Shown: positions 2,734 through 38,761 of the stretch, one piece after another | How positions within the stretch are numbered: position 1 is the first letter of the stretch | Layout: every line of letters begins with the position of its first letter | Position numbers and translations under genes: made by a program | Origin: a virus | Lineage: Duplodnaviria > Heunggongvirae > Uroviricota > Caudoviricetes | Direction: 5' to 3' (one strand) | DNA: 41,556 bases | IMG/VR virus record: IMGVR_UViG_2802429245_000005 | Notes under the pieces: generated by a model | What the model was told of the DNA's origin: nothing | Database searches by the model: none | What the model saw: only the letters and a program-made list of their open reading frames with translations

Positions 2734-3138
2734 TCATGCGTTACCATCGTCTTTTCTCCCCGGAATTAACTCGCGTGGATTATCGGAACGGTGGTAGAGC
2801 CATATACCAATACGCACAGCAACAATTGCTGACACGAATGCGCCAGCAGAGAAAACAATCCCTTTTTCAAAAGAGTCCTGCGTGATAGTAGGGATCAGGC
2901 TGGCTATGCCGATAAGAATTGATGCTGCTGGTTTATAAAAAAGAAGGCCGCAGAGAAAGCTAAGCATCGACAAGAGTACACGACGACGAATGGGATACTC
3001 TACCGCAGAGGTAACAAAAATTACCGCTCCAGCCAAAGCCCCCAAAGCAACCTCAGGAGGAACTCCTGCTATCACCGCCGCCAGAGAACTCATGCTAAGC
3101 CACTGATTTAAAGTTTCACTGGTTAGTTGAGCTGACAT
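2734..3138 (-). CDS. Multi-TM membrane protein, putative holin
   Basis: ATG at 3136-3138 preceded by GGTGG. About 134 aa with 3-4 predicted hydrophobic helices, immediately upstream of the endolysin. Confidence 0.5.
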   Translation of the reverse strand: MSAQLTSETLNQWLSMSSLAAVIAGVPPEVALGALAGAVIFVTSAVEYPIRRRVLLSMLSFLCGLLFYKPAASILIGIASLIPTITQDSFEKGIVFSAGAFVSAIVAVRIGIWLYHRSDNPRELIPGRKDDGNA

Positions 3139-3358
3139 GTTTTCCACCGTTTATATGCATAACTACCTCCTGAACAGTAAAGCATTATGCATGATAAACC
3201 ATTTATGGTTTTTTGTTACTTCAACATCGTCAATCCCCTGTTTTCATGCCGATAATAAGGCTCACCTTTTACATAACACTGAAGAAACAACAGTACAGAA
3301 ATGATTCAAACTATGGAGATCGGGTTGAATACCGCGCCATCAAATGGCGCGGTAGCGA

Positions 3359-3655
3359 TCAAATAGAGAAATAAATACAAAAACAAAAAATGACAGGAAC
3401 AGCAAAATCCAACAGACTTCCCACATCCCACACGCGTGGGTCAAAACCTCCCCACCATGGCATGTTGATACGTTTCCCTTTCCCAAACTTTTCTATCCAG
3501 CGATATTCTGCCTGGGTGTGTTCACGCGCAATGAAGAACGTACAACCGGCTATCGCACCGTAAGCCCAGTTTCCTGTTATTATTCCGAAGAAACATTGCA
3601 CAATTATTGATGCAATAGCATGGACAAAAGGAGAATAGTCAATATTATTCATCAT
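3359..3655 (-). CDS. Small integral membrane protein of unknown function
   Basis: ATG ATG at 3650-3655 preceded by GAAGGTG. About 98 aa, hydrophobic (IASIIVQCFFGIITG..., FAVPVIFCFCIYFSI). Followed by a 10-bp perfect-stem hairpin at 3331-3354. Confidence 0.45.
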   Translation of the reverse strand: MMNNIDYSPFVHAIASIIVQCFFGIITGNWAYGAIAGCTFFIAREHTQAEYRWIEKFGKGKRINMPWWGGFDPRVWDVGSLLDFAVPVIFCFCIYFSI

Positions 3656-3684: not shown

Positions 3685-6426
3685 TTACACAGCACAAATC
3701 CTGATCGTTGCTGTGATATCAGTTTCAGTGCCATTATTGAGATATAACCTACCGCCTACAATTGACATCCCAATTTTGGTAGAAACTTCTTCATCTGCAG
3801 ATGTCACCACCACGTTTGTTTTATTGTAATTACCAAGCGGAGATTCATCAGTCGAATGCCCTGGCCTCAATATCATTCCTACACCTGCAAAGAAATTAGG
3901 GTTCCCATTATTTATAACATCCACACAATAAGATAATGCGCTTTTACTAAGTGGGATGGATTGACTTGTATGTGCCTTAACCCACATTTCCCATACGTAT
4001 TCACTTTTACGTATCGCCCCCTCACATGAACCAGATGCATGGAATAACTTTCCTGATGATACAGTGTTATTGGTGCCAACAAGAATCATCTGATTTCCAC
4101 CACCAAAGCCAAAGTTATCACCAAGAGATGGTCCACCATTAATCCTTAACATATATGCATCAGTACTGCCTGATGAGGCGTCAGAGTTATCTATATATAC
4201 AGTGCAATCACTTATAAGAACGCCATCAATCTTATCTGGCGCAACAGTATTAGTTTGGACAACGACGAACTCTCTGGTGGTAGATTTTGCCGAACAACCT
4301 TTAATAATTGTTGGTGTTTCAAGAGTATATGTTTGAGTAATAAAAATGAAATTACTAGGACGAAGCTTCCGATTAACAGCATTTGTTGCTTTCCACCATT
4401 TATTGCTTGATTCGGTTGTTTCGCTAAAGCCATCAATATAGTGAGTATCGGTAATAGTAATTCCGCTACCATAATACAAACGAATCGGAAGGTTGCTAAA
4501 TCCTCTAATCTCGCAACCAGATACTATCTCATTAAAACCACGTATAGTTGCGCCATAAAAACAGTCAACTGCCACATTGTCTTTATATTTAGACTCTGCG
4601 GCACCACCATGACTACCAAACCCATAGGAAAATTCAGTCCATCCTTCCGATGGAAATATAATCCCACCAGTATAACCAGTTCCGCCACCACGCATTGTAA
4701 TGTTGGTTACATTATTGTAGAGAGAACTCCAGTTACTCCCTCCAATATCAACACCACGCCTACAACAAGATGCATTGATATTGTCCACAGTGCAGTAACT
4801 GCTATTGGAAACAGAAACAGCATTACCTGTACCACCATCACCATTGAAAACTCTATTGATTCCATACAGAGATGTATCACGAACAGTGCATCTTAAGCAG
4901 CCTAACAAGGTAATCCCAGCATTCGGGAAATTTTCCACACTAGCGAAACTGGCAATACCGTTTACGCAATATTCGAAGACAACCCCATCATAAGCTTTTT
5001 GTCCGCTAGTTGCATTGGTAACTAACCCGTGTATCGTCCCAACATGAAAATCTCCAGAAATATTAAATGTAGCAGGATAGACAGCCCAGGCCTCAGCTTG
5101 CCTAACCAAACGAAATGTATCTCCTGCAGCAGGTTTATTTGGGAATCCAGTGTCAGCATTACTACCAATAGTAAATGTTTTTGTGTCATCATCATATGCT
5201 GTAACCATTTTGGTTATACCAGCATTATCTCCCGTTAATCCAAGAATTTTATAGAGTGCATCACGAGGTGGTGATGTCACTGAGAAATTTGTAGATGTAA
5301 ATGATTGCCCACTAGATGCGCCAGTAACTGTAACTGTAATATTCCCTCCTGAACGGTAGTAATAATATGCATCCTGATCTAATGTCACATTATTTCCACT
5401 AAGTGAAACGACTTCAACAATTTGCCCTTCCTGCCAACTTCCTCGGTTATCTCCACGAACAAGGTGGTTATTACGAATAACAAGCAAATCTCCGACAGAA
5501 ATATCAGACACATCATCAAGAGTCACAGTCTTTTCGCCCAATGATATATCTCTCGTTATGAAATTATGCAATTTAGTACTTGCAATTCCACCAAGCTTTA
5601 TTGCTGAACCTTCATATCCTACAACATTATTTGTGCAGAGCAATTCAACCTTTCCTGATGCCACCCAATCGAAGCAACCATATGGAATGGAAATATCTAT
5701 TTGTGAAAACAGGTACTTTCCTGCTGTCCATTCCAAACGCTTTCCGTTAGATGCGCAGTAAATGATGGCATTTGTTATTGCGTCTGTATCGTCAGTAATG
5801 CCATCCCCTTTTGCACCAAAATCGCGAACATTGACGATATCCCGCATCTTATCCTGGAACGTTCTGTATACTGCTCCAGAACCATACTGAATAAACAAAC
5901 CAAAACCACCAACAACTCCGGCGATTGCAGCATCGACATAATTACGCATTGAGCGATTATTTACAGCATCCTGCTCAAGTGATGGATCTGCAAGGTTAGA
6001 AATTCTGTTTTGTTTTGCATCGTAATATTTTGCAAGCAGAGAGGGCTTCATCAATGCACGTCTGAACCACCCAAAACATTGCTGGATCAGCATCGTCAGA
6101 TAGTCAAAGGCATCCTCATGCACTTCGGGGAAAAATTTTCCCTGATTGCGAAGGTCTGTCTCCTGCACTACATCAAGCACACGATCTATCGTAATTCGCC
6201 ATCCAGCAGCAAGCGGAGACGGAAGAACCACAGAACCGCCACTATAAGTGCCCGCCCCAGTTACCGTATAACCGGTATCCAGAACCAATTCTGTTACGTT
6301 CCCGTTCAGGTCAGACACCTGAACAACCAGGTCTGATTTTCTGAAAATTCGAAAAGTATACGGAAACGATGTCGTAACGCCGTTACCTGTGTATTCGTTG
6401 TGGTCAACTTCGGTTGAGACCGTCAT
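3685..6426 (-). CDS. Tailspike with N-terminal virion-attachment domain and pectate-lyase-like beta-helix receptor-binding/depolymerase domain
   Basis: 913 aa. RBS GGAG 9 nt upstream of ATG (6424-6426). VRDFGAKGDGITDDTDAI motif typical of right-handed beta-helix glycanases. Downstream two-thirds is AT-rich by eye. Confidence 0.85.
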   Translation of the reverse strand: MTVSTEVDHNEYTGNGVTTSFPYTFRIFRKSDLVVQVSDLNGNVTELVLDTGYTVTGAGTYSGGSVVLPSPLAAGWRITIDRVLDVVQETDLRNQGKFFPEVHEDAFDYLTMLIQQCFGWFRRALMKPSLLAKYYDAKQNRISNLADPSLEQDAVNNRSMRNYVDAAIAGVVGGFGLFIQYGSGAVYRTFQDKMRDIVNVRDFGAKGDGITDDTDAITNAIIYCASNGKRLEWTAGKYLFSQIDISIPYGCFDWVASGKVELLCTNNVVGYEGSAIKLGGIASTKLHNFITRDISLGEKTVTLDDVSDISVGDLLVIRNNHLVRGDNRGSWQEGQIVEVVSLSGNNVTLDQDAYYYYRSGGNITVTVTGASSGQSFTSTNFSVTSPPRDALYKILGLTGDNAGITKMVTAYDDDTKTFTIGSNADTGFPNKPAAGDTFRLVRQAEAWAVYPATFNISGDFHVGTIHGLVTNATSGQKAYDGVVFEYCVNGIASFASVENFPNAGITLLGCLRCTVRDTSLYGINRVFNGDGGTGNAVSVSNSSYCTVDNINASCCRRGVDIGGSNWSSLYNNVTNITMRGGGTGYTGGIIFPSEGWTEFSYGFGSHGGAAESKYKDNVAVDCFYGATIRGFNEIVSGCEIRGFSNLPIRLYYGSGITITDTHYIDGFSETTESSNKWWKATNAVNRKLRPSNFIFITQTYTLETPTIIKGCSAKSTTREFVVVQTNTVAPDKIDGVLISDCTVYIDNSDASSGSTDAYMLRINGGPSLGDNFGFGGGNQMILVGTNNTVSSGKLFHASGSCEGAIRKSEYVWEMWVKAHTSQSIPLSKSALSYCVDVINNGNPNFFAGVGMILRPGHSTDESPLGNYNKTNVVVTSADEEVSTKIGMSIVGGRLYLNNGTETDITATIRICAV

Positions 6427-7792: not shown

Positions 7793-7816
7793 GGGCACTG
7801 GCAAAATCCAGTGCCG
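7793..7816 (+). other. Perfect 8-bp stem-loop (GGCACTGG / CCAGTGCC) in the antirepressor leader
   Basis: Read directly; lies between the operator at 7744 and the terminator at 7851. Confidence 0.5.
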
Positions 7817-7850
7817 GGATTGGCGTCCCGGATTACTAAAAGGCGCATTC

Positions 7851-7870
7851 ACCGCGCAAGCGGTTTTTTT
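7851..7870 (+). terminator. Intrinsic terminator-like hairpin plus T7 tract in the antirepressor leader
   Basis: ACCGC-GCAA-GCGGT followed by TTTTTTT. Confidence 0.5.
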
Positions 7871-8027
7871 ATGCGTATAGCACGGCCACATTCGTATTAT
7901 GGTGGGCTGTGTGGGGGCACCGAAAGGTGCGCCGGGTCCTTTTAGCCGGTTACGCCAACCCTGCACAGTTCACCACCAACCGATTGGCGTCGGTAGTGGT
8001 GATTAACCAGACTAAAAGGTAACCACT

Positions 8028-22013: not shown

Positions 22014-22451
22014 TTAACCAGTTACTTTTGAGCGGATCGGGTACGGCGTATTGGCATCAACATCAAGACTGATACCCGCAGTGAATTCGCCAGCCGTTAG
22101 TGGGCCAGTTGCGACGGAGTAGTTAACACGCAGATATCGCTGAACACCGGCAGGCACCTTTGCAGAAACAACTCGTTTACCTGCTGTCAGGGTGGTCTTT
22201 GCCAGTGCGCCACTATCATAAATAGTGGTCCATGAGCTGTTATTCTCACTCGTCTGCAACTGGATGTTTACAGTTGCATCACCGCTTGCCGCGGCGGCTG
22301 TGTTAACCAGCGCCCAAAATTCAAGCGGGTAACCCACGCCGATATCACGACGTTTTCCGTCAATTGGACCGAGATCGATTACGTCAGTAGAAGCCGCGGT
22401 ATTCGTAACCGCCTGAGCTTCGGAGAACATCAACAGTTTGTCGGTGATCAT
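22014..22451 (-). CDS. Head-associated protein downstream of major capsid gene
   Basis: RBS GGAGAAAG before ATG at 22449-22451. 145 aa, Thr/Ala/Val-rich, beta-rich-looking sequence. Confidence 0.55.
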   Translation of the reverse strand: MITDKLLMFSEAQAVTNTAASTDVIDLGPIDGKRRDIGVGYPLEFWALVNTAAAASGDATVNIQLQTSENNSSWTTIYDSGALAKTTLTAGKRVVSAKVPAGVQRYLRVNYSVATGPLTAGEFTAGISLDVDANTPYPIRSKVTG

Positions 22452-22466
22452 CTTCTTTCTCCATTA

Positions 22467-22486
22467 GTGGGTCTGTTACGACCCAC
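22467..22486 (-). other. Stem-loop immediately downstream of the major capsid gene
   Basis: Perfect 7-bp stem GTGGGTC / GACCCAC with no U-tract, between the coat stop and the RBS of the next gene. Confidence 0.45.
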
Positions 22487-22502
22487 AGGTTAATAACAGG
22501 CG

Positions 22503-23495
22503 TTACACCACGCGGGCTTCTGTTTCCAGAAGCGCATCAGTTTCACGGATTGGTACACCACGGAATGAAGTCCACCACTCGCCTTCAGTCTCTTTTACGC
22601 TGATAGCCAGAGATGTTTTCTCCAGAGACTGTAGATCAAGAGCCTGGCCTACAGTGCGGTTCATGTAGAACACCGGGCGGCCCATGCCACGGTTTGGAAT
22701 GCGATGCAGTGCTTTAACCATCAACTTCGCAATATTTGCGGCAGAGGAAGGTTCTGAAAGATTGCTGACATCGATGTTTGCAATGCGAACAACATAACGC
22801 CAGTCACGCAGAGCAAGTCCGTTGTCCCATTTGTAATGGGTACGGTAGCCTTCGTACTTGCCGCCATTCGCATCTTCCAGTGTCACCTGGCCTTTATCTT
22901 CCATCTGGATGCCAGCCTTCTGCCCTTTCGGGAAGATGCCATGCACGGTGTTTTCGCCCCACACCACTAACCAGATTGAGGTGTTATCTGTACCCGTGCC
23001 ACCAGCATCAATGATGTTCTGAGCATTACCCGCAGACAGGCTGGAATAGCGGGAGGACAAACCCATAAACTGCTGAGGGTTAACGCTGGAATCACCATAA
23101 AACAACGTCTGCGCCATCTGCTGATTCATCGCTTCAATAAATGCGCGGTCTTCAGACAGGCGGAATTCGGCGGTATTACCGTTCAGATCAGCCAGTGACT
23201 TATCGACTTCAGCATAGGTTTCCAACATGCCAACGGAATCGGTGACCTGCACTGTGGTTGATTTGCTTGGTTGTACGCCATAGTTCAGCAAACGCCAGGT
23301 AGCTGAAGGTAAACCAGAACGAATGGTGGTTCGGTGTCCGGTAGGAAGGTTCCCTTCGACAAAAGGCATATCCTGAAGGATCGGGTTAGTTTGACCGAGA
23401 AGCTCGATAATCTTATCGACTTTCCCGTTTGGATCGACGCGCTTACCCCAGTCAGCCAGCGTTAGCGCAGTTAAGCCTTTAACAGCCATTGTCAT
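22503..23495 (-). CDS. Major capsid protein
   Basis: 330 aa. RBS AGAGAGGA before ATG at 23493-23495. Lies directly after the scaffold gene and is followed by a stem-loop, as expected for a highly expressed coat gene. Confidence 0.8.
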   Translation of the reverse strand: MTMAVKGLTALTLADWGKRVDPNGKVDKIIELLGQTNPILQDMPFVEGNLPTGHRTTIRSGLPSATWRLLNYGVQPSKSTTVQVTDSVGMLETYAEVDKSLADLNGNTAEFRLSEDRAFIEAMNQQMAQTLFYGDSSVNPQQFMGLSSRYSSLSAGNAQNIIDAGGTGTDNTSIWLVVWGENTVHGIFPKGQKAGIQMEDKGQVTLEDANGGKYEGYRTHYKWDNGLALRDWRYVVRIANIDVSNLSEPSSAANIAKLMVKALHRIPNRGMGRPVFYMNRTVGQALDLQSLEKTSLAISVKETEGEWWTSFRGVPIRETDALLETEARVV

Positions 23496-23503
23496 TTCCT
23501 CTC

Positions 23504-24199
23504 TTATTTGCCATAGAGCACTTCGGCCGCACTACGCTGGCCTTCATTACCACCGGTGACCATGCCATCTTCAGACATCGCCTTTCCGATTTTCACGAAC
23601 GTTTTGACCAGATCAGGGTGATTACCCAGCCCGGTGGTGTTCAGATATTCTTTGAGTTCAGGTGTCCCGAACTGGTCAAGCGCACGCTGTGCGGCGCTAA
23701 GGTTAGAAATCAACTTGTCGCCACCGATTTCTTTGTCAGCTTTTACATCCGCAGCCCACTGCTCGGTTGTTTTCTGCCAGGCTTCTGCCTGGCGCTGCTG
23801 AACACCTGCCAGAATCTTCGGATAAGCATCAACCAGCTTTTGCGCTTGCTCGTTGGTCAGGTTAAGTTCTCGCGCCACCGGCTCGAATTCCTTCAACGCT
23901 TCTGTATCCAGCTCTACGCCTTCGGCAGCCTGAAACTCGTACTTCTCAGGCGCACCCTCTGGTTTATCGCCGCCCTTTTTTTCATCCTGCTTATCGTTTT
24001 CAGGCTTTTTGTCATCAGCAGGTTTATCGCCATCAGCAACAGGTTGTGGCTTATCGCCTTCCTGTTGTGATGGATCACCAACTGGAGCAGGGGTATCACC
24101 TGCAGGCGCTGACGGTTCTGACGCAGCCGGAGCTGCTCCACCATCGACTGGTTGCTCATTGCAAAGACGGCGATACAGCAAACGCTCAAATAAATTCAT
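23504..24199 (-). CDS. Scaffolding protein
   Basis: AGGAG 5 nt before ATG at 24197-24199. Acidic, low-complexity Pro/Ala/Asp/Lys-rich N-terminal half and helical C-terminus. Sits between portal and coat genes. Confidence 0.65.
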   Translation of the reverse strand: MNLFERLLYRRLCNEQPVDGGAAPAASEPSAPAGDTPAPVGDPSQQEGDKPQPVADGDKPADDKKPENDKQDEKKGGDKPEGAPEKYEFQAAEGVELDTEALKEFEPVARELNLTNEQAQKLVDAYPKILAGVQQRQAEAWQKTTEQWAADVKADKEIGGDKLISNLSAAQRALDQFGTPELKEYLNTTGLGNHPDLVKTFVKIGKAMSEDGMVTGGNEGQRSAAEVLYGK

Positions 24200-24201
24200 G
24201 A

Positions 24202-24498
24202 TCACTCCTGTTCACTGGCCTCTTTGGCCATCTTCAAATACTGTTCAGGGCAATGCGCCATAACGCGCTGAAACAGTTCCAGCGCCAGATTGCGTTGCCC
24301 CTCATTAAATGCCATTGCCATAGCGTCCATCGGTGAGATAGCGGAAAACACACGGCCTTTCTCCAGCACCGACCAGACAACGCGACGCCCCTGTTCACTG
24401 CTCATGACAAAGCGAATGTCATCAATTTCACGCTGCGCCATGTCACGTTGCTTACGGGCGTTTTCTTCTTTCAGTTGATCGTCTTCGTAATCTGTCAT
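24202..24498 (-). CDS. Small head-morphogenesis-region protein
   Basis: 98 aa. Overlaps the portal stop by 4 nt. Confidence 0.5.
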   Translation of the reverse strand: MTDYEDDQLKEENARKQRDMAQREIDDIRFVMSSEQGRRVVWSVLEKGRVFSAISPMDAMAMAFNEGQRNLALELFQRVMAHCPEQYLKMAKEASEQE

Positions 24499-26174
24499 TG
24501 TGATTGCCCACCCTGACCACTAACTGCATTCGCCATAGCTGACAAAACACTCGGATCCGAAGTTTTAGCTTCGCTTAGCGTCTTGGCACCCTGTGCCGCC
24601 GCCATCCCCATCGCCATCATTTGTTGCTGCTGTTGCTGCTGTGCCCGTTGCTGGCGAGCCTGCTCAACCTGTTCCTGCGGAACAATGACGGTTGGAGACA
24701 CTCCGGACATATCAGCGAATGCATCGATCGCCTGATCAACGTTGAGTTTGTCGAGAGCTTCTGGTTTCGCTTGCGCAAGTTGACCAATGAAGTTGACCGT
24801 AGACGCCAGACTGGACAAGCCGATAGACTTCTGCGCCTGAGCCATGACGGAAATGTATTCGACCTTCAGGGGCATACCTTCCATCGCGTCAGGCGGTGGC
24901 GGCAGCATGTTTTTACGCACCATCATCGAGAAAGCGCGGTCAATGAGAGGATTAAGACATTCGTCGTTCAGACGCTCCAGAACCGGCCCCAACATCAGAA
25001 GTTTTTCTTCTTTCATTTCGATCACCGCTTCAACAGGCATCGAGCGGGTATTGATGTTCTGCAACATCATGAACAGATCGACAAAGTAGGCGCTGTTAAT
25101 GATTTGACGAGTGTCCTGAATGTCTGCCACCAAATCTGCTGTACTGGGGTTAACCAGATAAGCAGGCCTGAAGCCATCCTGACCAGTAATCTGATCGATA
25201 TACGTGATGTCGCCAGGAAGAAGGGAGGCGCGCTGATTCTTGAGGGAAGTCGGAGCAACCATCGGCGGATTGGTGGCTTTATCAATCAACTGCGACTTGC
25301 GCTTCTGGAGAAGCTGCAATGCCTTAACAGGTCCAAGCGCCAGCATACCCGGGCATGATGATCCATAAACATCTTCGCCGTTAACTTCCCAGCGCGGAGC
25401 CATAATTGGAAACTCATCGAATCCGGACTCACGCAACAACTTGTCGTTATCGCCACCAACCTCGTAATAAACCGATTTGAATGGCTTGTTCTTGCTATCC
25501 AGCTTCGATGTATCGCGGTCAATGTTCGGGTAAACCGAATGCATCACTTCAATCCACTTCTCGTAGGTGCCGCTTTCCCACATGCTTTTTACGGATTCGC
25601 TGACGTTATTTAGCCCGAACTCCTGAACAAGCTGACGAACAGTCATAGAGAACTTACGAAAACATGTGTCCACACTGCCACGAGGTGAGTTAGCCAGGTA
25701 GTAACTACCTATCGGGAATGGCATTGTGCGAATTATGTCCTCGTCATCCTCCAGCACCGCCATTGCACCAGTGCTGTATGTGCCGAGGCTTCCGTATAAC
25801 TGCGGAAGAGACTGGTAGAGATTCGACTTATTGAACATATCGTTCATGCGGTTCTGCACCGCCTCAAGCCACAACTTAACAGGGCCATAATCCATCATTT
25901 CAGGATCTGGCGTAGCCAGGCGAAACCACGGACGCGCGGGACTTGTGATGCCTGACATCATGCCGCTGGCGAGAGTGCGCGCCGCCATAGTCCCGGTCGA
26001 ATCAATAATGCGTGTATTGCGTCGATCGTTACGGTTGACCTCAGAAGTCAGAAAGCGGGAACCACGCGGGTTGATGTAATCACTCAACTCGCGCCAGTGC
26101 GGCTCGAACGACTGACGCTCGCTTTCAAGTTGTGCGAACTGTTTGTTCAATCGCTCTTTAGTTGTTTCCGCCAT
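24495..26174 (-). CDS. Portal protein
   Basis: 559 aa. Sits between terminase and scaffold/coat genes. Gln-rich C-terminus. ATG at 26172-26174. Confidence 0.8.
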   Translation of the reverse strand: MAETTKERLNKQFAQLESERQSFEPHWRELSDYINPRGSRFLTSEVNRNDRRNTRIIDSTGTMAARTLASGMMSGITSPARPWFRLATPDPEMMDYGPVKLWLEAVQNRMNDMFNKSNLYQSLPQLYGSLGTYSTGAMAVLEDDEDIIRTMPFPIGSYYLANSPRGSVDTCFRKFSMTVRQLVQEFGLNNVSESVKSMWESGTYEKWIEVMHSVYPNIDRDTSKLDSKNKPFKSVYYEVGGDNDKLLRESGFDEFPIMAPRWEVNGEDVYGSSCPGMLALGPVKALQLLQKRKSQLIDKATNPPMVAPTSLKNQRASLLPGDITYIDQITGQDGFRPAYLVNPSTADLVADIQDTRQIINSAYFVDLFMMLQNINTRSMPVEAVIEMKEEKLLMLGPVLERLNDECLNPLIDRAFSMMVRKNMLPPPPDAMEGMPLKVEYISVMAQAQKSIGLSSLASTVNFIGQLAQAKPEALDKLNVDQAIDAFADMSGVSPTVIVPQEQVEQARQQRAQQQQQQQMMAMGMAAAQGAKTLSEAKTSDPSVLSAMANAVSGQGGQSQ

Positions 26175-26188
26175 TTCAATGACTCCGG

Positions 26189-26395
26189 TTACTGACCAAG
26201 CAGCGTTTTACCGCTGGTATTAGCGGTTGATGTGTCGCCCTGAGAACCGGTAAGCAGCGTAGAACTACGACCAGCAGCAGCGCGACGGCGACGAGTTTCT
26301 TCGTCGCGGGCATCAACAACGGCGGCATCCTGCTCCTGTGGTGCGGCCTGAACTTCTGGTGTTGCAGGCACTGATGGTGAGCTACCCATGCACAT
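26189..26395 (-). CDS. Small hydrophilic protein upstream of portal
   Basis: 68-aa ORF (ATG at 26393-26395) ending 15 nt before the portal start. Frame choice against the overlapping 26176-26415 ORF is uncertain. Confidence 0.3.
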   Translation of the reverse strand: MCMGSSPSVPATPEVQAAPQEQDAAVVDARDEETRRRRAAAGRSSTLLTGSQGDTSTANTSGKTLLGQ

Positions 26396-26485
26396 ATCAA
26401 TGACTCCGTACGCAATTAAATTATTACCAATTTAACCACATATGATTTATTTATCGTAGATAGTTGACATTTAACGCACGAATTA

Positions 26486-26500
26486 TTACCTTTCAGGTAA
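26486..26500. promoter_or_regulatory. Palindromic operator-like site TTACCTTTCAGGTAA
   Basis: Exact motif next to TTGACA (26464-26469), upstream of the tRNA region. Confidence 0.6.
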
Positions 26501-26822
26501 CCAAAGAGTTCATTCCGGTTACTAACCTGACTGGCTTGTCGTTAAATTGAACAGGTGGAGTGAGCTTTTATTTTGAGCAGTACGGCGTATGGCACATGCG
26601 CCGATAGCGGTCTGGATACGTTTAAGGGGCACCCTCCCTTGCTCGGGCAAACGAACCAGGTAGCCGGAATGTGCAAGTCGAGCGGTTTTATTCCGCGCAC
26701 GGGGATTCACCATCCCGGCGATTCGGTGTGACACCTCGGAAGAGACGAGGGTACAACGATGAGGGCATTTATGGAGCCGCGACAAAGTGTGGTGCCTTAA
26801 CAGGCTAAGTGCTCTCAGCGTT

Positions 26823-26899
26823 GTGGCATTAGCTCAGCTGGACAGAGCAACCGCCTTCTAAGCGGTTGGTCGCAGGTTCGAATCCTGCATGCCACGCCA
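26823..26899 (+). tRNA. tRNA-Arg, anticodon UCU (reads AGA), phage-encoded
   Basis: Cloverleaf read directly: acceptor GTGGCAT/ATGCCAC, D-arm GCTC-AGCTGGACA-GAGC, anticodon stem ACCGC/GCGGT with loop CTTCTAA, T-arm GCAGG-TTCGAAT-CCTGC, discriminator G and encoded CCA. Confidence 0.85.
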
Positions 26900-26942
26900 G
26901 AATCACGCCTAAGGACCGTGATGCCAGAAGTTCCATGGGCTT

Positions 26943-26985
26943 GGCGGTGATGGTTTCCCTTGAAGGACTATCACCGCCCTTTTTA
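26943..26985 (+). terminator. Rho-independent terminator downstream of tRNA-Arg
   Basis: 9-bp perfect stem GGCGGTGAT / ATCACCGCC followed by CTTTTT. Confidence 0.6.
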
Positions 26986-27058
26986 CAGCAGGACGCCATT
27001 GCGATGACTTCATGCTGTAAACCAGTACAGCCACGGAAGGCATAACTCATTGCTTCCA

Positions 27059-27087
27059 GTTCGCCCGGTTCGCCGGGCATTTTTTTG
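27059..27087 (+). terminator. Rho-independent terminator (second, downstream of the tRNA)
   Basis: GCCCGG-TTCG-CCGGGC followed by ATTTTTTT. Confidence 0.7.
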
Positions 27088-27102
27088 CCTGGTGACTGAA
27101 CG

Positions 27103-27117
27103 TTACCTTGAAGGTAA
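27103..27117. promoter_or_regulatory. Palindromic operator-like site TTACCTTGAAGGTAA
   Basis: Exact motif 33 nt upstream of ATG 27150, downstream of the tRNA terminators. Confidence 0.6.
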
Positions 27118-27149
27118 GATAACAAAAACATTTAACATCTGGTTTAGAC

Positions 27150-27755
27150 ATGTTCGAGCAATTTAAAGAGATCGCATCATCGGCTATTAGCACAACGTCA
27201 GAGAGAGTCCGCAACCCAGCACTTGGGGCATTTGTGTTTTCGTGGTGTTCTTTTAACTGGAATCCACTATTATTTTTATTCTTCAGTAAGTCAGGAATTG
27301 AAGAAAAAATAAATTATATATCTTCCCATAGTGATGCGTACCACTCACTCTTATATCCAGCTTTATGTGCATTCGCGCTGTGTGTAATAGTTCCATGGTT
27401 TAACAATATAGTGGTGATGTTTCAAAAAATTCCACTACAGAACATCGATAACTTCAAACACAACAAAAGCCTCAGGGATGTTAAAAACGCCATAGAATTG
27501 CGTAAGCTTGAGGCACAAAGGGACATTACATACGACAGAGTTAAGGTTGAGTTTGAGTCTGAGATTCAATTCTATAAAAATGATTTAATCAAGCACCAAG
27601 AGTCTTTGAATTCTTTTTTGCAGGAAAGAGATTCCCTTATTGAAAAAATAATGGCGCTTGAAAAAGAACTTGCAGAAGAAAAAATAAAATCCAATACCAG
27701 AATTGCAAATAAGTTTAACTCAAGGAACAATCGCAACACAGACAATGCTGCTTAA
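27150..27755 (+). CDS. AT-rich membrane protein with C-terminal coiled coil; accessory gene
   Basis: 201 aa on the strand opposite to the flanking late genes. Two hydrophobic segments then a heptad-like Glu/Lys-rich tail. Operator motif at 27103-27117. Confidence 0.6.
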   Translation: MFEQFKEIASSAISTTSERVRNPALGAFVFSWCSFNWNPLLFLFFSKSGIEEKINYISSHSDAYHSLLYPALCAFALCVIVPWFNNIVVMFQKIPLQNIDNFKHNKSLRDVKNAIELRKLEAQRDITYDRVKVEFESEIQFYKNDLIKHQESLNSFLQERDSLIEKIMALEKELAEEKIKSNTRIANKFNSRNNRNTDNAA

Positions 27756-37823: not shown

Positions 37824-38761
37824 GCAACGACATCGCAAACATCAATGCACCAGTAGACACAGCAATCGCTGGAACTGCTGCAACTATTTTCAGCCCAGAC
37901 GGCTTGAACCAACTGATGAAATTCGCCGAGGTAATGGCGCAAAGCCGCGTAACGGTACCGGCGCACCTCGCCGGGAAACCAGCTGATTGCATGGCCGTGG
38001 CAATGCAGGCTGCGCAGTGGGGAATGAACCCGTTTGCCGTGGCTCAGAAAACCCATGTTGTGAACGGCACGCTAGGTTATGAAGCCCAATTAGTAAACGC
38101 AGTTATCTCAACGATGTCGCCAACAAAAGATCGCATCAACTACGAGTGGTTCGGGCCGTGGGAACGCGTGATCGGTAAGTTTGTTGAGAAAACATCCAAA
38201 AACGGCAATCCATATATCGCACCAGGCTGGACTCTAAAAGACGAAGAAGGCTGCGGTGTTCGCGTATGGGCAACCATGAAGGGCGAGGATCAACCTCGAG
38301 TGCTTGAGTTAATGCTGTCTCAAGCACAGGTAAGAAACTCCACACTTTGGGCCAGTGATCCGAAACAACAACTCGCATACCTTGCGACAAAACGCTGGTC
38401 TCGCTTGCACTGTCCTGACGTAATCATGGGCGTCTACACACCAGACGAATTACAGGAAACGGCACCGCGCGTTGAGCGAGACATTACTCCGCAAACGACC
38501 ACTGCTGCGGGAATGAACAGTCTGATCAACGCTAAACAAGTGAAAAAGCCTGATGAGCAAACGCGTAAAGCGGATAGCCGTGATCCAGAAGAAATGCTGA
38601 TGGCCTTTACCAGCGCAGCGATGAATTACAGCACTGTCTCCGAACTGGATAAAGCTTACAAATACATTGCACAAAAACTTTCAGATGATGACGAACTGCT
38701 GGCAAAAGCCACCGACGTTTACAGCGTTCGTCGGGAAGAATTAAACGAAACATCTATGTAA
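37820..38761 (+). CDS. recT: RecT-family single-strand annealing protein
   Basis: 313 aa. ATG overlaps the exonuclease stop. Conserved RecT-like core (AQWGMNPFA...TLGYEAQLVNAV). Confidence 0.8.
   Translation: MSNDIANINAPVDTAIAGTAATIFSPDGLNQLMKFAEVMAQSRVTVPAHLAGKPADCMAVAMQAAQWGMNPFAVAQKTHVVNGTLGYEAQLVNAVISTMSPTKDRINYEWFGPWERVIGKFVEKTSKNGNPYIAPGWTLKDEEGCGVRVWATMKGEDQPRVLELMLSQAQVRNSTLWASDPKQQLAYLATKRWSRLHCPDVIMGVYTPDELQETAPRVERDITPQTTTAAGMNSLINAKQVKKPDEQTRKADSRDPEEMLMAFTSAAMNYSTVSELDKAYKYIAQKLSDDDELLAKATDVYSVRREELNETSM

Follow-up and report, generated by a model that had tools for sequence, protein, structure and literature searches.

The stretch of DNA examined here (the window, 41,556 nt; IMG/VR virus record IMGVR_UViG_2802429245_000005) belongs to a temperate podophage like phiV10 and epsilon15, a Uetakevirus by DNA similarity, in which a non-coding unit lies between the portal-side and terminase genes, on the strand opposite to theirs. 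Two adjoining parts of this unit, a 173-nt RNA core (26581–26753, plus strand) and the long stem that directly follows it (P6), belong to a family of structured RNAs that is widespread among temperate enterobacterial phages and has gone unannotated. The unit runs, in order, through a promoter overlapped by an operator, a hairpin domain (D0), the core, P6, a tRNA-Arg(UCU), a further hairpin, a first terminator (T1), a module resembling the seed of RyhB together with a second terminator (T2), and a cargo open reading frame (ORF).

Folded as a single sequence, the whole 271 nt are unexceptional (z = −1.6 on the plus strand and −0.9 on the minus strand); support for structure is comparative. It comes from an alignment of the core in 28 diverged relatives, no two of them more than 94% identical, in which invariant blocks alternate with stem tips of variable length. 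The structure tested was built by hand; in the controls the 3′ partners were slid out of register, and 500 shuffles were made in addition. Standard pairs were found in 93.5% of the core pair cells, compared with 28–47% in the slid controls, and the covariation score was 0.287, against 0.079 or less for the controls. Not one of the 500 shuffles attained the observed covariation score or the observed percentage paired. Eleven core pairs are changed on both sides (shuffle mean 7.7), including one in a pseudoknot, where C-G becomes A-U. The first-pass annotation had described stable hairpins in the roughly 320 nt upstream of the tRNA; the structure of this region indeed exceeds chance and covaries strongly, and P6 folds with z = −5.1 relative to shuffles.

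The fold, as supported by a covariance model (R1) and the pair counts in the 28 relatives, begins with the hairpin H1 (26583–26603; CGGCGUAU / AUGCGCCG, loop GGCAC), all elements being on the plus strand. It further comprises P2, a long interrupted stem with a tip of variable length, the invariant 19-mer GGUAGCCGGAAUGUGCAAG (26659–26677), the variable stem P3, the hairpin P4 (26702–26716), which has a 7-nt loop UUCACCA, and the hairpin P5 (26734–26750; CCUCG / CGAGG). The pseudoknot joins CACC in the P4 loop (26708–26711) to GGUG at 26725–26728, and this pairing covaries, CACC/GGUG being replaced by AACC/GGUU in three sequences of the cdtI/mEp460 type. The many G-U pairs in the core would be A-C mismatches on the opposite strand and make sense on the plus strand only, that of the RNA. 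RNAalifold proposes an alternative to H1, a long-range helix GCACAU/AUGUGC, both strands of which are invariant and hence without support from covariation. Most of the loci were collected through an exact match to the 19-mer, so that its apparent invariance is inflated; it is also invariant in a set derived from BLAST, which was chosen independently of the motif. The invariance of unpaired segments of the core suggests that they bind a conserved partner.

The covariance model R1 scores the window copy (26581–26753) at 147.7 bits (E = 8.9e-39). In Rfam 15 the core had no family match at E ≤ 10. For the window region 26300–27250, the tRNA alone gave a significant match (cut-off E = 0.01), with no GOLLD, ROOL, riboswitch, ribozyme, Y RNA or 6S, and the homologous region of mEp460 (2900–3600) gave no match, likewise at E ≤ 10.

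A BLAST search with positions 26396–27149 (754 nt) as the query showed that about 245 nt (26582–26826) recur at 70–84% identity in unrelated phages. These include the lambda-like phages cdtI, mEp460, 2H10, the Stx2c phages and Stx2a_1447; P1, P7, D6, SJ46 and RCS47; relatives of epsilon15 in Klebsiella, Enterobacter and Salmonella; and a phage deposited as a Stenotrophomonas phage. In the records listed, the matched segment carries no feature, a ‘hypothetical protein’, a tRNA or, in epsilon15, an ‘RNaseIII’ site. The 754-nt query matches 1092 of 5426 complete Escherichia coli genomes, the core being present in part of those, and a 250-nt query matches 591 plasmid records, mostly non-mobilizable replicons of ∼90–100 kb like P1. 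The 19-mer (GGTAGCCGGAATGTGCAAG) occurs in at least 120 IMG/VR contigs and in 24 stretches of GTDB species representatives, all of them Enterobacterales bar two bins of metagenome-assembled genomes. One of the two bins holds a chance 19-mer match, as judged by the covariance model; the flanking-gene context of the other, shared with a viral locus, suggests that it contains binned phage DNA.

The RNA is present once in 87 of the 89 loci searched; the remaining two are a locus with a tandem pair and a chance 19-mer match with no copy at all. In the tandem locus, a lambda-like viral contig (L029), the two cores (3997–4154 and 4804–4959, both on the minus strand) lie about 650 nt apart. Epsilon15 itself has an internally deleted remnant of the core (2544–2633), which scores 40 bits where intact copies score about 140–160, and no tRNA.

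When 156 loci were oriented on the RNA and their flanking ORFs clustered, its genomic position fell into a few recurrent arrangements. Class A, which is Uetakevirus-like, has portal and gp3 genes, then the promoter, D0, core, P6, a tRNA-Arg or a domain that we call X, terminators, a variable cargo ORF and the terminase genes. In class B, which is lambda-like and numbers about 73 loci, the gene of a cI-type repressor (HTH and Peptidase_S24 domains) ends 170–235 nt before the 19-mer on the same strand. Between cI and the RNA are an intrinsic terminator and then a PL-like promoter, for example TTGACA-16-CATAAT, with operator-like repeats, 35–85 nt before H1; the RNA thus occupies the position of PL and of putL in HK022. 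In a smaller class, cI is replaced by an HTH_3 repressor. In class C (P1-like), the RNA begins 14 nt after a tRNA-Ile2(CAU) and precedes ban, within the C1-controlled ban operon. The family as a whole is thus placed close to where early operons begin.

An adjacent tRNA is found in 37 of 137 distinct loci and is always on the same strand as the RNA (23 tRNA-Arg(TCT) downstream, 13 tRNA(CAT) upstream and one other). Because the other 100 loci have none, the tRNA is an optional passenger and the RNA is the constant element.

The surroundings of the core are modular. On its 5′ side, D0 forms a long hairpin (26504–26569, plus strand; minimum free energy −22.9 kcal/mol, z = −2.1). In relatives from Klebsiella and Enterobacter, a hairpin with arms like those of P6 was read by eye at the D0 position, and in the epsilon15 record the equivalent stretch is annotated as an RNase III site. 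Directly 3′ of the core, P6 (26754–26823, plus strand; −36.8 kcal/mol, z = −5.1) is a stem of about 20 bp, CAACGAUGAGGGCA...UGCUCUCAGCGUUG (CAAC...GUUG), capped by a swappable insert, and its final G is the first G of the tRNA. The stem is present in 95 of 138 distinct loci. Among its 26 distinct arm pairs, 24 pair at 13–15 of 16 positions, with many compensatory changes. The cap is hypervariable: 42 different inserts give total lengths of 44 to 205 nt, and unrelated inserts are seen even in elements that are otherwise near-identical.

In 65 of 152 loci the tRNA slot is taken by domain X, whose closing stem is acceptor-like (GUUGUGGUGA/UCACCACAAC). Its first hairpin, GCGCA...UGCGC, is conserved (GCCCA...UGGGC in one relative), as is its last, whilst the middle varies in length. 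The hairpin AUCACG...CGUGAU, which follows the tRNA in the window (26902–26922, plus strand), follows X in most class representatives, and the terminator start GGCGGUG lies behind X in many. As the same hairpin and terminator start lie behind both, tRNA and X appear to be interchangeable. In one locus (L100), the X slot, 456–579 nt downstream of the 19-mer, holds a pseudo-tRNA like tRNA-Tyr, which has D and T arms, a long insertion and the acceptor stem GUUGUGG/CCACAAC; it suggests either that X and tRNAs stand in for one another or that X arose from a tRNA. A further long inverted repeat (ACAAAACAGAGAAGA ... TCTTCTCTGTTTTGT) was seen in mEp460 at 3432–3520, immediately behind the strong terminator that follows domain X and before the first early-left ORF.

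Promoters, processing sites and terminator strengths are predictions throughout. The putative repressor-controlled promoter of the unit (26464–26500, plus strand) has a −35 hexamer TTGACA (26464–26469) and, after a 17-nt spacer, a −10 hexamer TACCTT (26487–26492), which is overlapped by the palindrome TTACC-N5-GGTAA (26486–26500). The TTGACA hexamer and operator that the first-pass annotation had placed here thus hold as a sequence motif. The motif lies 118 nt upstream of the core, and the combination TTGAC(A/C/T)-17-TACC(T/C)T with the TTACC-N5-GGTAA palindrome recurs 64–174 nt before H1 in seven of eight relatives read, whose hosts are Salmonella, Klebsiella, Enterobacter and others. A consensus promoter scan of the window did not call the site, because its −10 matches at only three of six positions.

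Downstream of the tRNA, both of the predicted tandem terminators consist of a G+C-rich hairpin followed by a U tract. T1 (26943–26985, plus strand) has a 14-bp stem and the U tract CTTTTT, the site itself being 26943–26978, and its stem start GGCGGUG is also present in relatives. T2 (27063–27086, plus strand; site 27063–27078) has six G-C pairs followed by ATTTTTTT, and differs from the original description of tandem terminators in being part of a separate conserved module (below). The sole promoter-like site called downstream of the RNA in the window is inside the cargo ORF, so the RyhB-like module and the ORF (27150–27755) stand behind T1 and T2 without a called promoter.

How might such an RNA work? 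The reading that we rank first is that the core is a cis-acting antitermination leader RNA resembling the put RNAs of HK022; we advance it tentatively, from comparison with that system, as a possibility that falls short of being probable. A processed, trans-acting RNA is ranked second, almost level with it. In putL, the nascent RNA binds the zinc-binding domain of the β′ subunit and makes RNA polymerase resistant to terminators, and put stays on the polymerase after it has been cut from the transcript (PMC9378689). By analogy, the nascent core would act in cis on the polymerase that has just made it, which would then pass the intrinsic terminators between the RNA and the downstream genes. In the window, this would mean read-through of T1 and T2 toward the small RNA (sRNA)-like module and the cargo ORF; for cdtI and mEp460, the terminator passed would be one of −20.7 kcal/mol that stands before the whole early-left operon. 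RNase P, at the 5′ end of the tRNA, and possibly RNase III, in D0 and P6, may free the RNA from the tRNA. As put remains bound to the polymerase once cut (PMC9378689), the reading ranked first and that ranked second are not mutually exclusive.

One likeness to put is of position. Like putL and putR of HK022 and the putL-like RNA of HK639, which follow a repressor-controlled early promoter in lambda-like phages without N, the core lies, in the relatives and in the window, soon after a predicted repressor-controlled early promoter, co-oriented with it and before terminators. Like them it is structured, with conserved unpaired nucleotides. The mEp460 record annotates a Q-like late regulator and no N-like antiterminator, and in Pfam none of the ORFs that come first after the RNA matches N. 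The −20.7 kcal/mol terminator of cdtI and mEp460 separates the RNA from the opening gene of an early-left operon some 8 kb long, with no promoter-like site called after it. In each of the 40 Uetakevirus-type loci, the 700 nt downstream contain one or more plus-strand terminators (mean 2.8, versus 0.9 on the minus strand). By eye, the core shares short motifs with the putL of HK022 and HK639, namely ACGGCG...CAUGCGUCG and CGG-N-AAUG. The HK639 record also annotates, besides its putL-like RNA, an ‘M3-like RNA’ after cII (37910–37969).

Several observations weigh against antitermination by the core, and the first group of them concerns kinship with put. Neither an nhmmer profile nor the covariance model R1 matched HK022 putL or putR (early region), or anything in the whole HK639 genome including its putL-like RNA, at E ≤ 10. 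The core is also two to three times the size of put: put RNAs are about 70 nt long with two stems (126 nt are annotated in HK639), whereas the core spans 147–179 nt, includes a pseudoknot and is followed by P6 and by X or a tRNA. Whilst put RNAs come as a left and right pair, the core is single-copy; a putR-like second copy in the rightward operon was absent from the whole mEp460 genome, in keeping with the copy numbers above. With no homology match, a larger core and no second copy, membership of the put family itself fails. Unlike put, the core is found outside lambda-like operons too, in P1 and in podophages.

The second group concerns the role itself. The P1 copy is some 2.3 kb from Pban and directly after a tRNA. 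In the window, unchecked read-through would proceed antisense into a terminase gene, and the strong terminators, two in tandem, have the look of a genuine end to the unit. A model of antitermination leaves the hypervariable P6 tip and domain X without a role. Finally, with a lenient terminator finder the plus-strand excess is confined to the Uetakevirus and P1 classes, the lambda-like class taken as a whole showing none (1.5, versus 2.1 on the minus strand), and a strict finder missed even the window’s own terminators. Given this insensitivity on the one hand and the restriction to two classes on the other, the enrichment test is a weak one.

The alternative ranked second, which we also regard as possible though doubtful, is a discrete and stable non-coding RNA that acts in trans. 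Here, an early transcript of about 450–500 nt would end at the terminators and then be processed, by RNase III in D0 and P6 and by RNase P at the tRNA, or at X should that be tRNA-like, to free a core of about 200 nt. Its partner would be a conserved component of the host (RNA polymerase, ribosome, a nuclease or a defence protein), with GOLLD and ROOL or the T4 species 1 and 2 RNAs as parallels. This accounts for an RNA with its own promoter and strong terminators in the window and in cdtI and mEp460, and for the long, near-perfect duplexes of about 20 bp in D0 and P6, which have the shape of RNase III substrates, the D0 position being marked as such a site in the epsilon15 record. It also fits the 3′ end, where the tRNA begins on the last base of P6 or gives way to X with its acceptor-like stem, and the shared strand of RNA and adjacent tRNAs. 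On the other hand, RNase III and RNase P cleavage is deduced here from shape alone, and the only candidate terminator that P1 has between its copy and ban is weak (−8.3 kcal/mol). In the lambda-like phages transcription must continue past the RNA, because the early-left genes follow with no called promoter in between.

GOLLD, ROOL and T4 species 1 and 2 are structured phage or prophage RNAs that often lie beside tRNA genes on the same strand. The present RNA has the multi-domain layout D0, core, P6 and X, and a co-stranded tRNA adjoins it in a minority of loci. Differences from GOLLD and ROOL are the lack of an Rfam match, a smaller RNA (about 250–450 nt in total), hosts that are Enterobacterales rather than Firmicutes and others, and a fixed position behind early promoters, which is not a known feature of those RNAs. 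The C4 RNA of P1 and P7 and the CI RNA of P4, immunity RNAs that RNase P cuts out of longer transcripts, offer a likeness of another sort: phage regulatory RNAs that enzymes of tRNA processing free from an early transcript. The window does encode a C4 RNA elsewhere. Its sequence and fold are unrelated to those of the core, however, as are those of CI, and C4 has known antisense targets.

It is possible, though doubtful, that the core represents a new class of RNA that reprograms the polymerase of the host or some other conserved part of its machinery. Such an RNA would be the counterpart, made of RNA, of N and nut in the many lambda-like prophages that lack N, among them Stx2c, some Stx2a and Cdt-converting phages, would serve P1 and epsilon15-like phages also, and would have a modular 3′ end (the P6 tip, and X or a tRNA) for processing and perhaps specificity.

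It is improbable that the RNA is a sensor, that is, a riboswitch-like or conformational switch in which a ligand or host factor sets termination against read-through and so links early transcription to the state of the host. Invariant junction nucleotides and a pseudoknot are typical of aptamers, terminators are present downstream, and two mutually exclusive pairings can be drawn, H1 or the pairing of its loop and 3′ side (GCACAU) with the invariant AUGUGC. The latter, however, is the helix that lacks covariation support. In addition, no enclosing helix of the P1 type joins the core to the terminator, what lies between them is interchangeable (P6 inserts, X or tRNA), phage P1 has only its weak candidate terminator before ban, and no Rfam riboswitch matches.

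Of still lower probability is that the stretch lacks any function of its own and is just the 5′ leader in a tRNA precursor, or what is left of a second tRNA; the first-pass annotation had named a leader, a non-coding RNA or a decayed second tRNA as possibilities. The stretch does abut the tRNA and is co-transcribed with it, and tRNA-like remnants lie nearby in some relatives. Its conservation, with compensatory changes, nevertheless goes beyond that of a leader, ARAGORN and Rfam find no tRNA-like fold in 26500–26822, and the distribution of the RNA, a separate family without an adjacent tRNA in most loci, contradicts this explanation; nor does anything in the window speak for a decayed tRNA.

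Least probable is that the stretch encodes a protein (minus-strand ORF, 26522–26785) or is a DNA site such as an operator, attachment site or origin: ORFs can be called mechanically over the 320 nt (87 amino acids on the minus strand, 52 on the plus strand), which qualifies the earlier statement that no convincing ORF is present, and a hypothetical protein is annotated in phiV10, TL-2011b and mEp460, but the core lengths in the 28 relatives fall in all three residue classes modulo 3 and hence do not fit a conserved reading frame, the insertions and deletions sit in stem tips, and the substitutions keep the pairing intact, G-U pairs among them, which on the other strand would be A-C mismatches. 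Neither a reading frame nor a site in double-stranded DNA fits these patterns, and coding potential was rejected on that of indels and frames.

The tRNA itself (26823–26899, plus strand) is like argU and has an encoded CCA. As had been predicted, it is a tRNA-Arg with anticodon UCU on the strand opposite to the late genes: ARAGORN finds it as the single tRNA in the window, with a complete cloverleaf and anticodon TCT, and the Rfam tRNA model scores it at 71.7 bits (gathering score 29). Aligned with argU of E. coli K-12, it shows 15 differences over 77 positions (∼81% identity). These fall chiefly in the stems of the acceptor and anticodon arms, for the most part as paired changes, and leave the D-arm stem, anticodon loop and T arm unaltered; the 3′ end is GCCA, so that CCA is present in the DNA. 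Similar sequences occur in 717 phage records, most of those listed being annotated as tRNA-Arg, and therefore the tRNA is ordinary; it is already annotated in several records.

The identity of the tRNA fits the supplementing of the rare AGA codon. AGA makes up 7.1 per 1000 codons over the whole window and 18–24 per 1000 in accessory ORFs of 36–43% GC, among them ORF 27150–27755, whereas it is absent from the portal, terminase and head-region genes (22014 to 26395). The argument from AGA-rich accessory genes, also made beforehand, agrees with these counts. Among phage-borne rare-codon tRNAs (argU-like Arg(UCU), ileX-like Ile2(CAU), and ileZ-argN-argO of Stx phages), the present one is an ordinary member, the only particular trait being that it is fused to the upstream RNA through the P6 stem.

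Behind T1, the module UCAUUGCUUCCAGUU with T2 (27032–27086, plus strand) was delimited from a low Rfam score, conservation and the terminator call. Thirteen of its nucleotides are identical to the RyhB seed; against the Rfam RyhB model it scores 18.1 bits, below the gathering score of 55. Its core ATTGCTTCCAG is kept in 27 related loci, with the full 15-mer in those listed, and the terminator stem behind it covaries. From its sequence, the module is a candidate sRNA that mimics RyhB, or a candidate sponge. The cargo ORF that follows T1 and T2 (27150–27755, plus strand; 201 amino acids, 36% GC, 19.9 AGA per 1000 codons) belongs to PHROG 4780 and gave only a marginal match in PADLOC. In relatives, the cargo slot is filled by quite different ORF families, for example a Phage_gp49_66 family protein.

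The genes flanking the unit are all on the minus strand. They comprise the portal gene (E = 1.6e-187 for Pfam Head-tail_con), the genes of the terminase, with a small subunit (Terminase_2) and a large one assigned by synteny with epsilon15, and a gp3-like ORF of 68 amino acids. Elsewhere in the window, isrK (7795–7870, plus strand; 77.9 bits) and the C4 antisense RNA (7895–7980, plus strand; 77.7 bits) are neighbours, both above their Rfam gathering scores, and the pair suggests that this podophage has an immunity module that works through RNA, as P1/P7 immI does.

The RNA family is annotated in no record that we inspected, the matching stretches being left blank or labelled as hypothetical proteins, and it is absent from Rfam 15. 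Its motif strings were not found in the literature text searched, and papers on put, on the Pas sRNAs, on the Minerva genome language model, on a CRISPR interference (CRISPRi) screen of P1 and on the P1 hfq transcriptome do not describe it. In the P1 CRISPRi screen, trnI and ban were non-essential (PMC10695390). The non-essentiality of these genes suggests that the P1 copy of the RNA may be dispensable for plaque formation in the laboratory.

To our knowledge, put of HK022 and its relatives provides the only examples of RNA-only antitermination in enterobacterial phages. If the core is an antiterminator, it would be a second and much commoner type, and would explain how the early-left operon is expressed without N in a large group of lambda-like prophages, which includes toxin-converting phages of pathogenic E. 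coli. If instead it is a stable trans-acting RNA, it would be an uncharacterised early product of phages as well studied as P1, and would join the unexplained tRNA-linked phage RNAs. On either reading, these phages carry a well-supported structured RNA that is amenable to direct testing with simple reporters.

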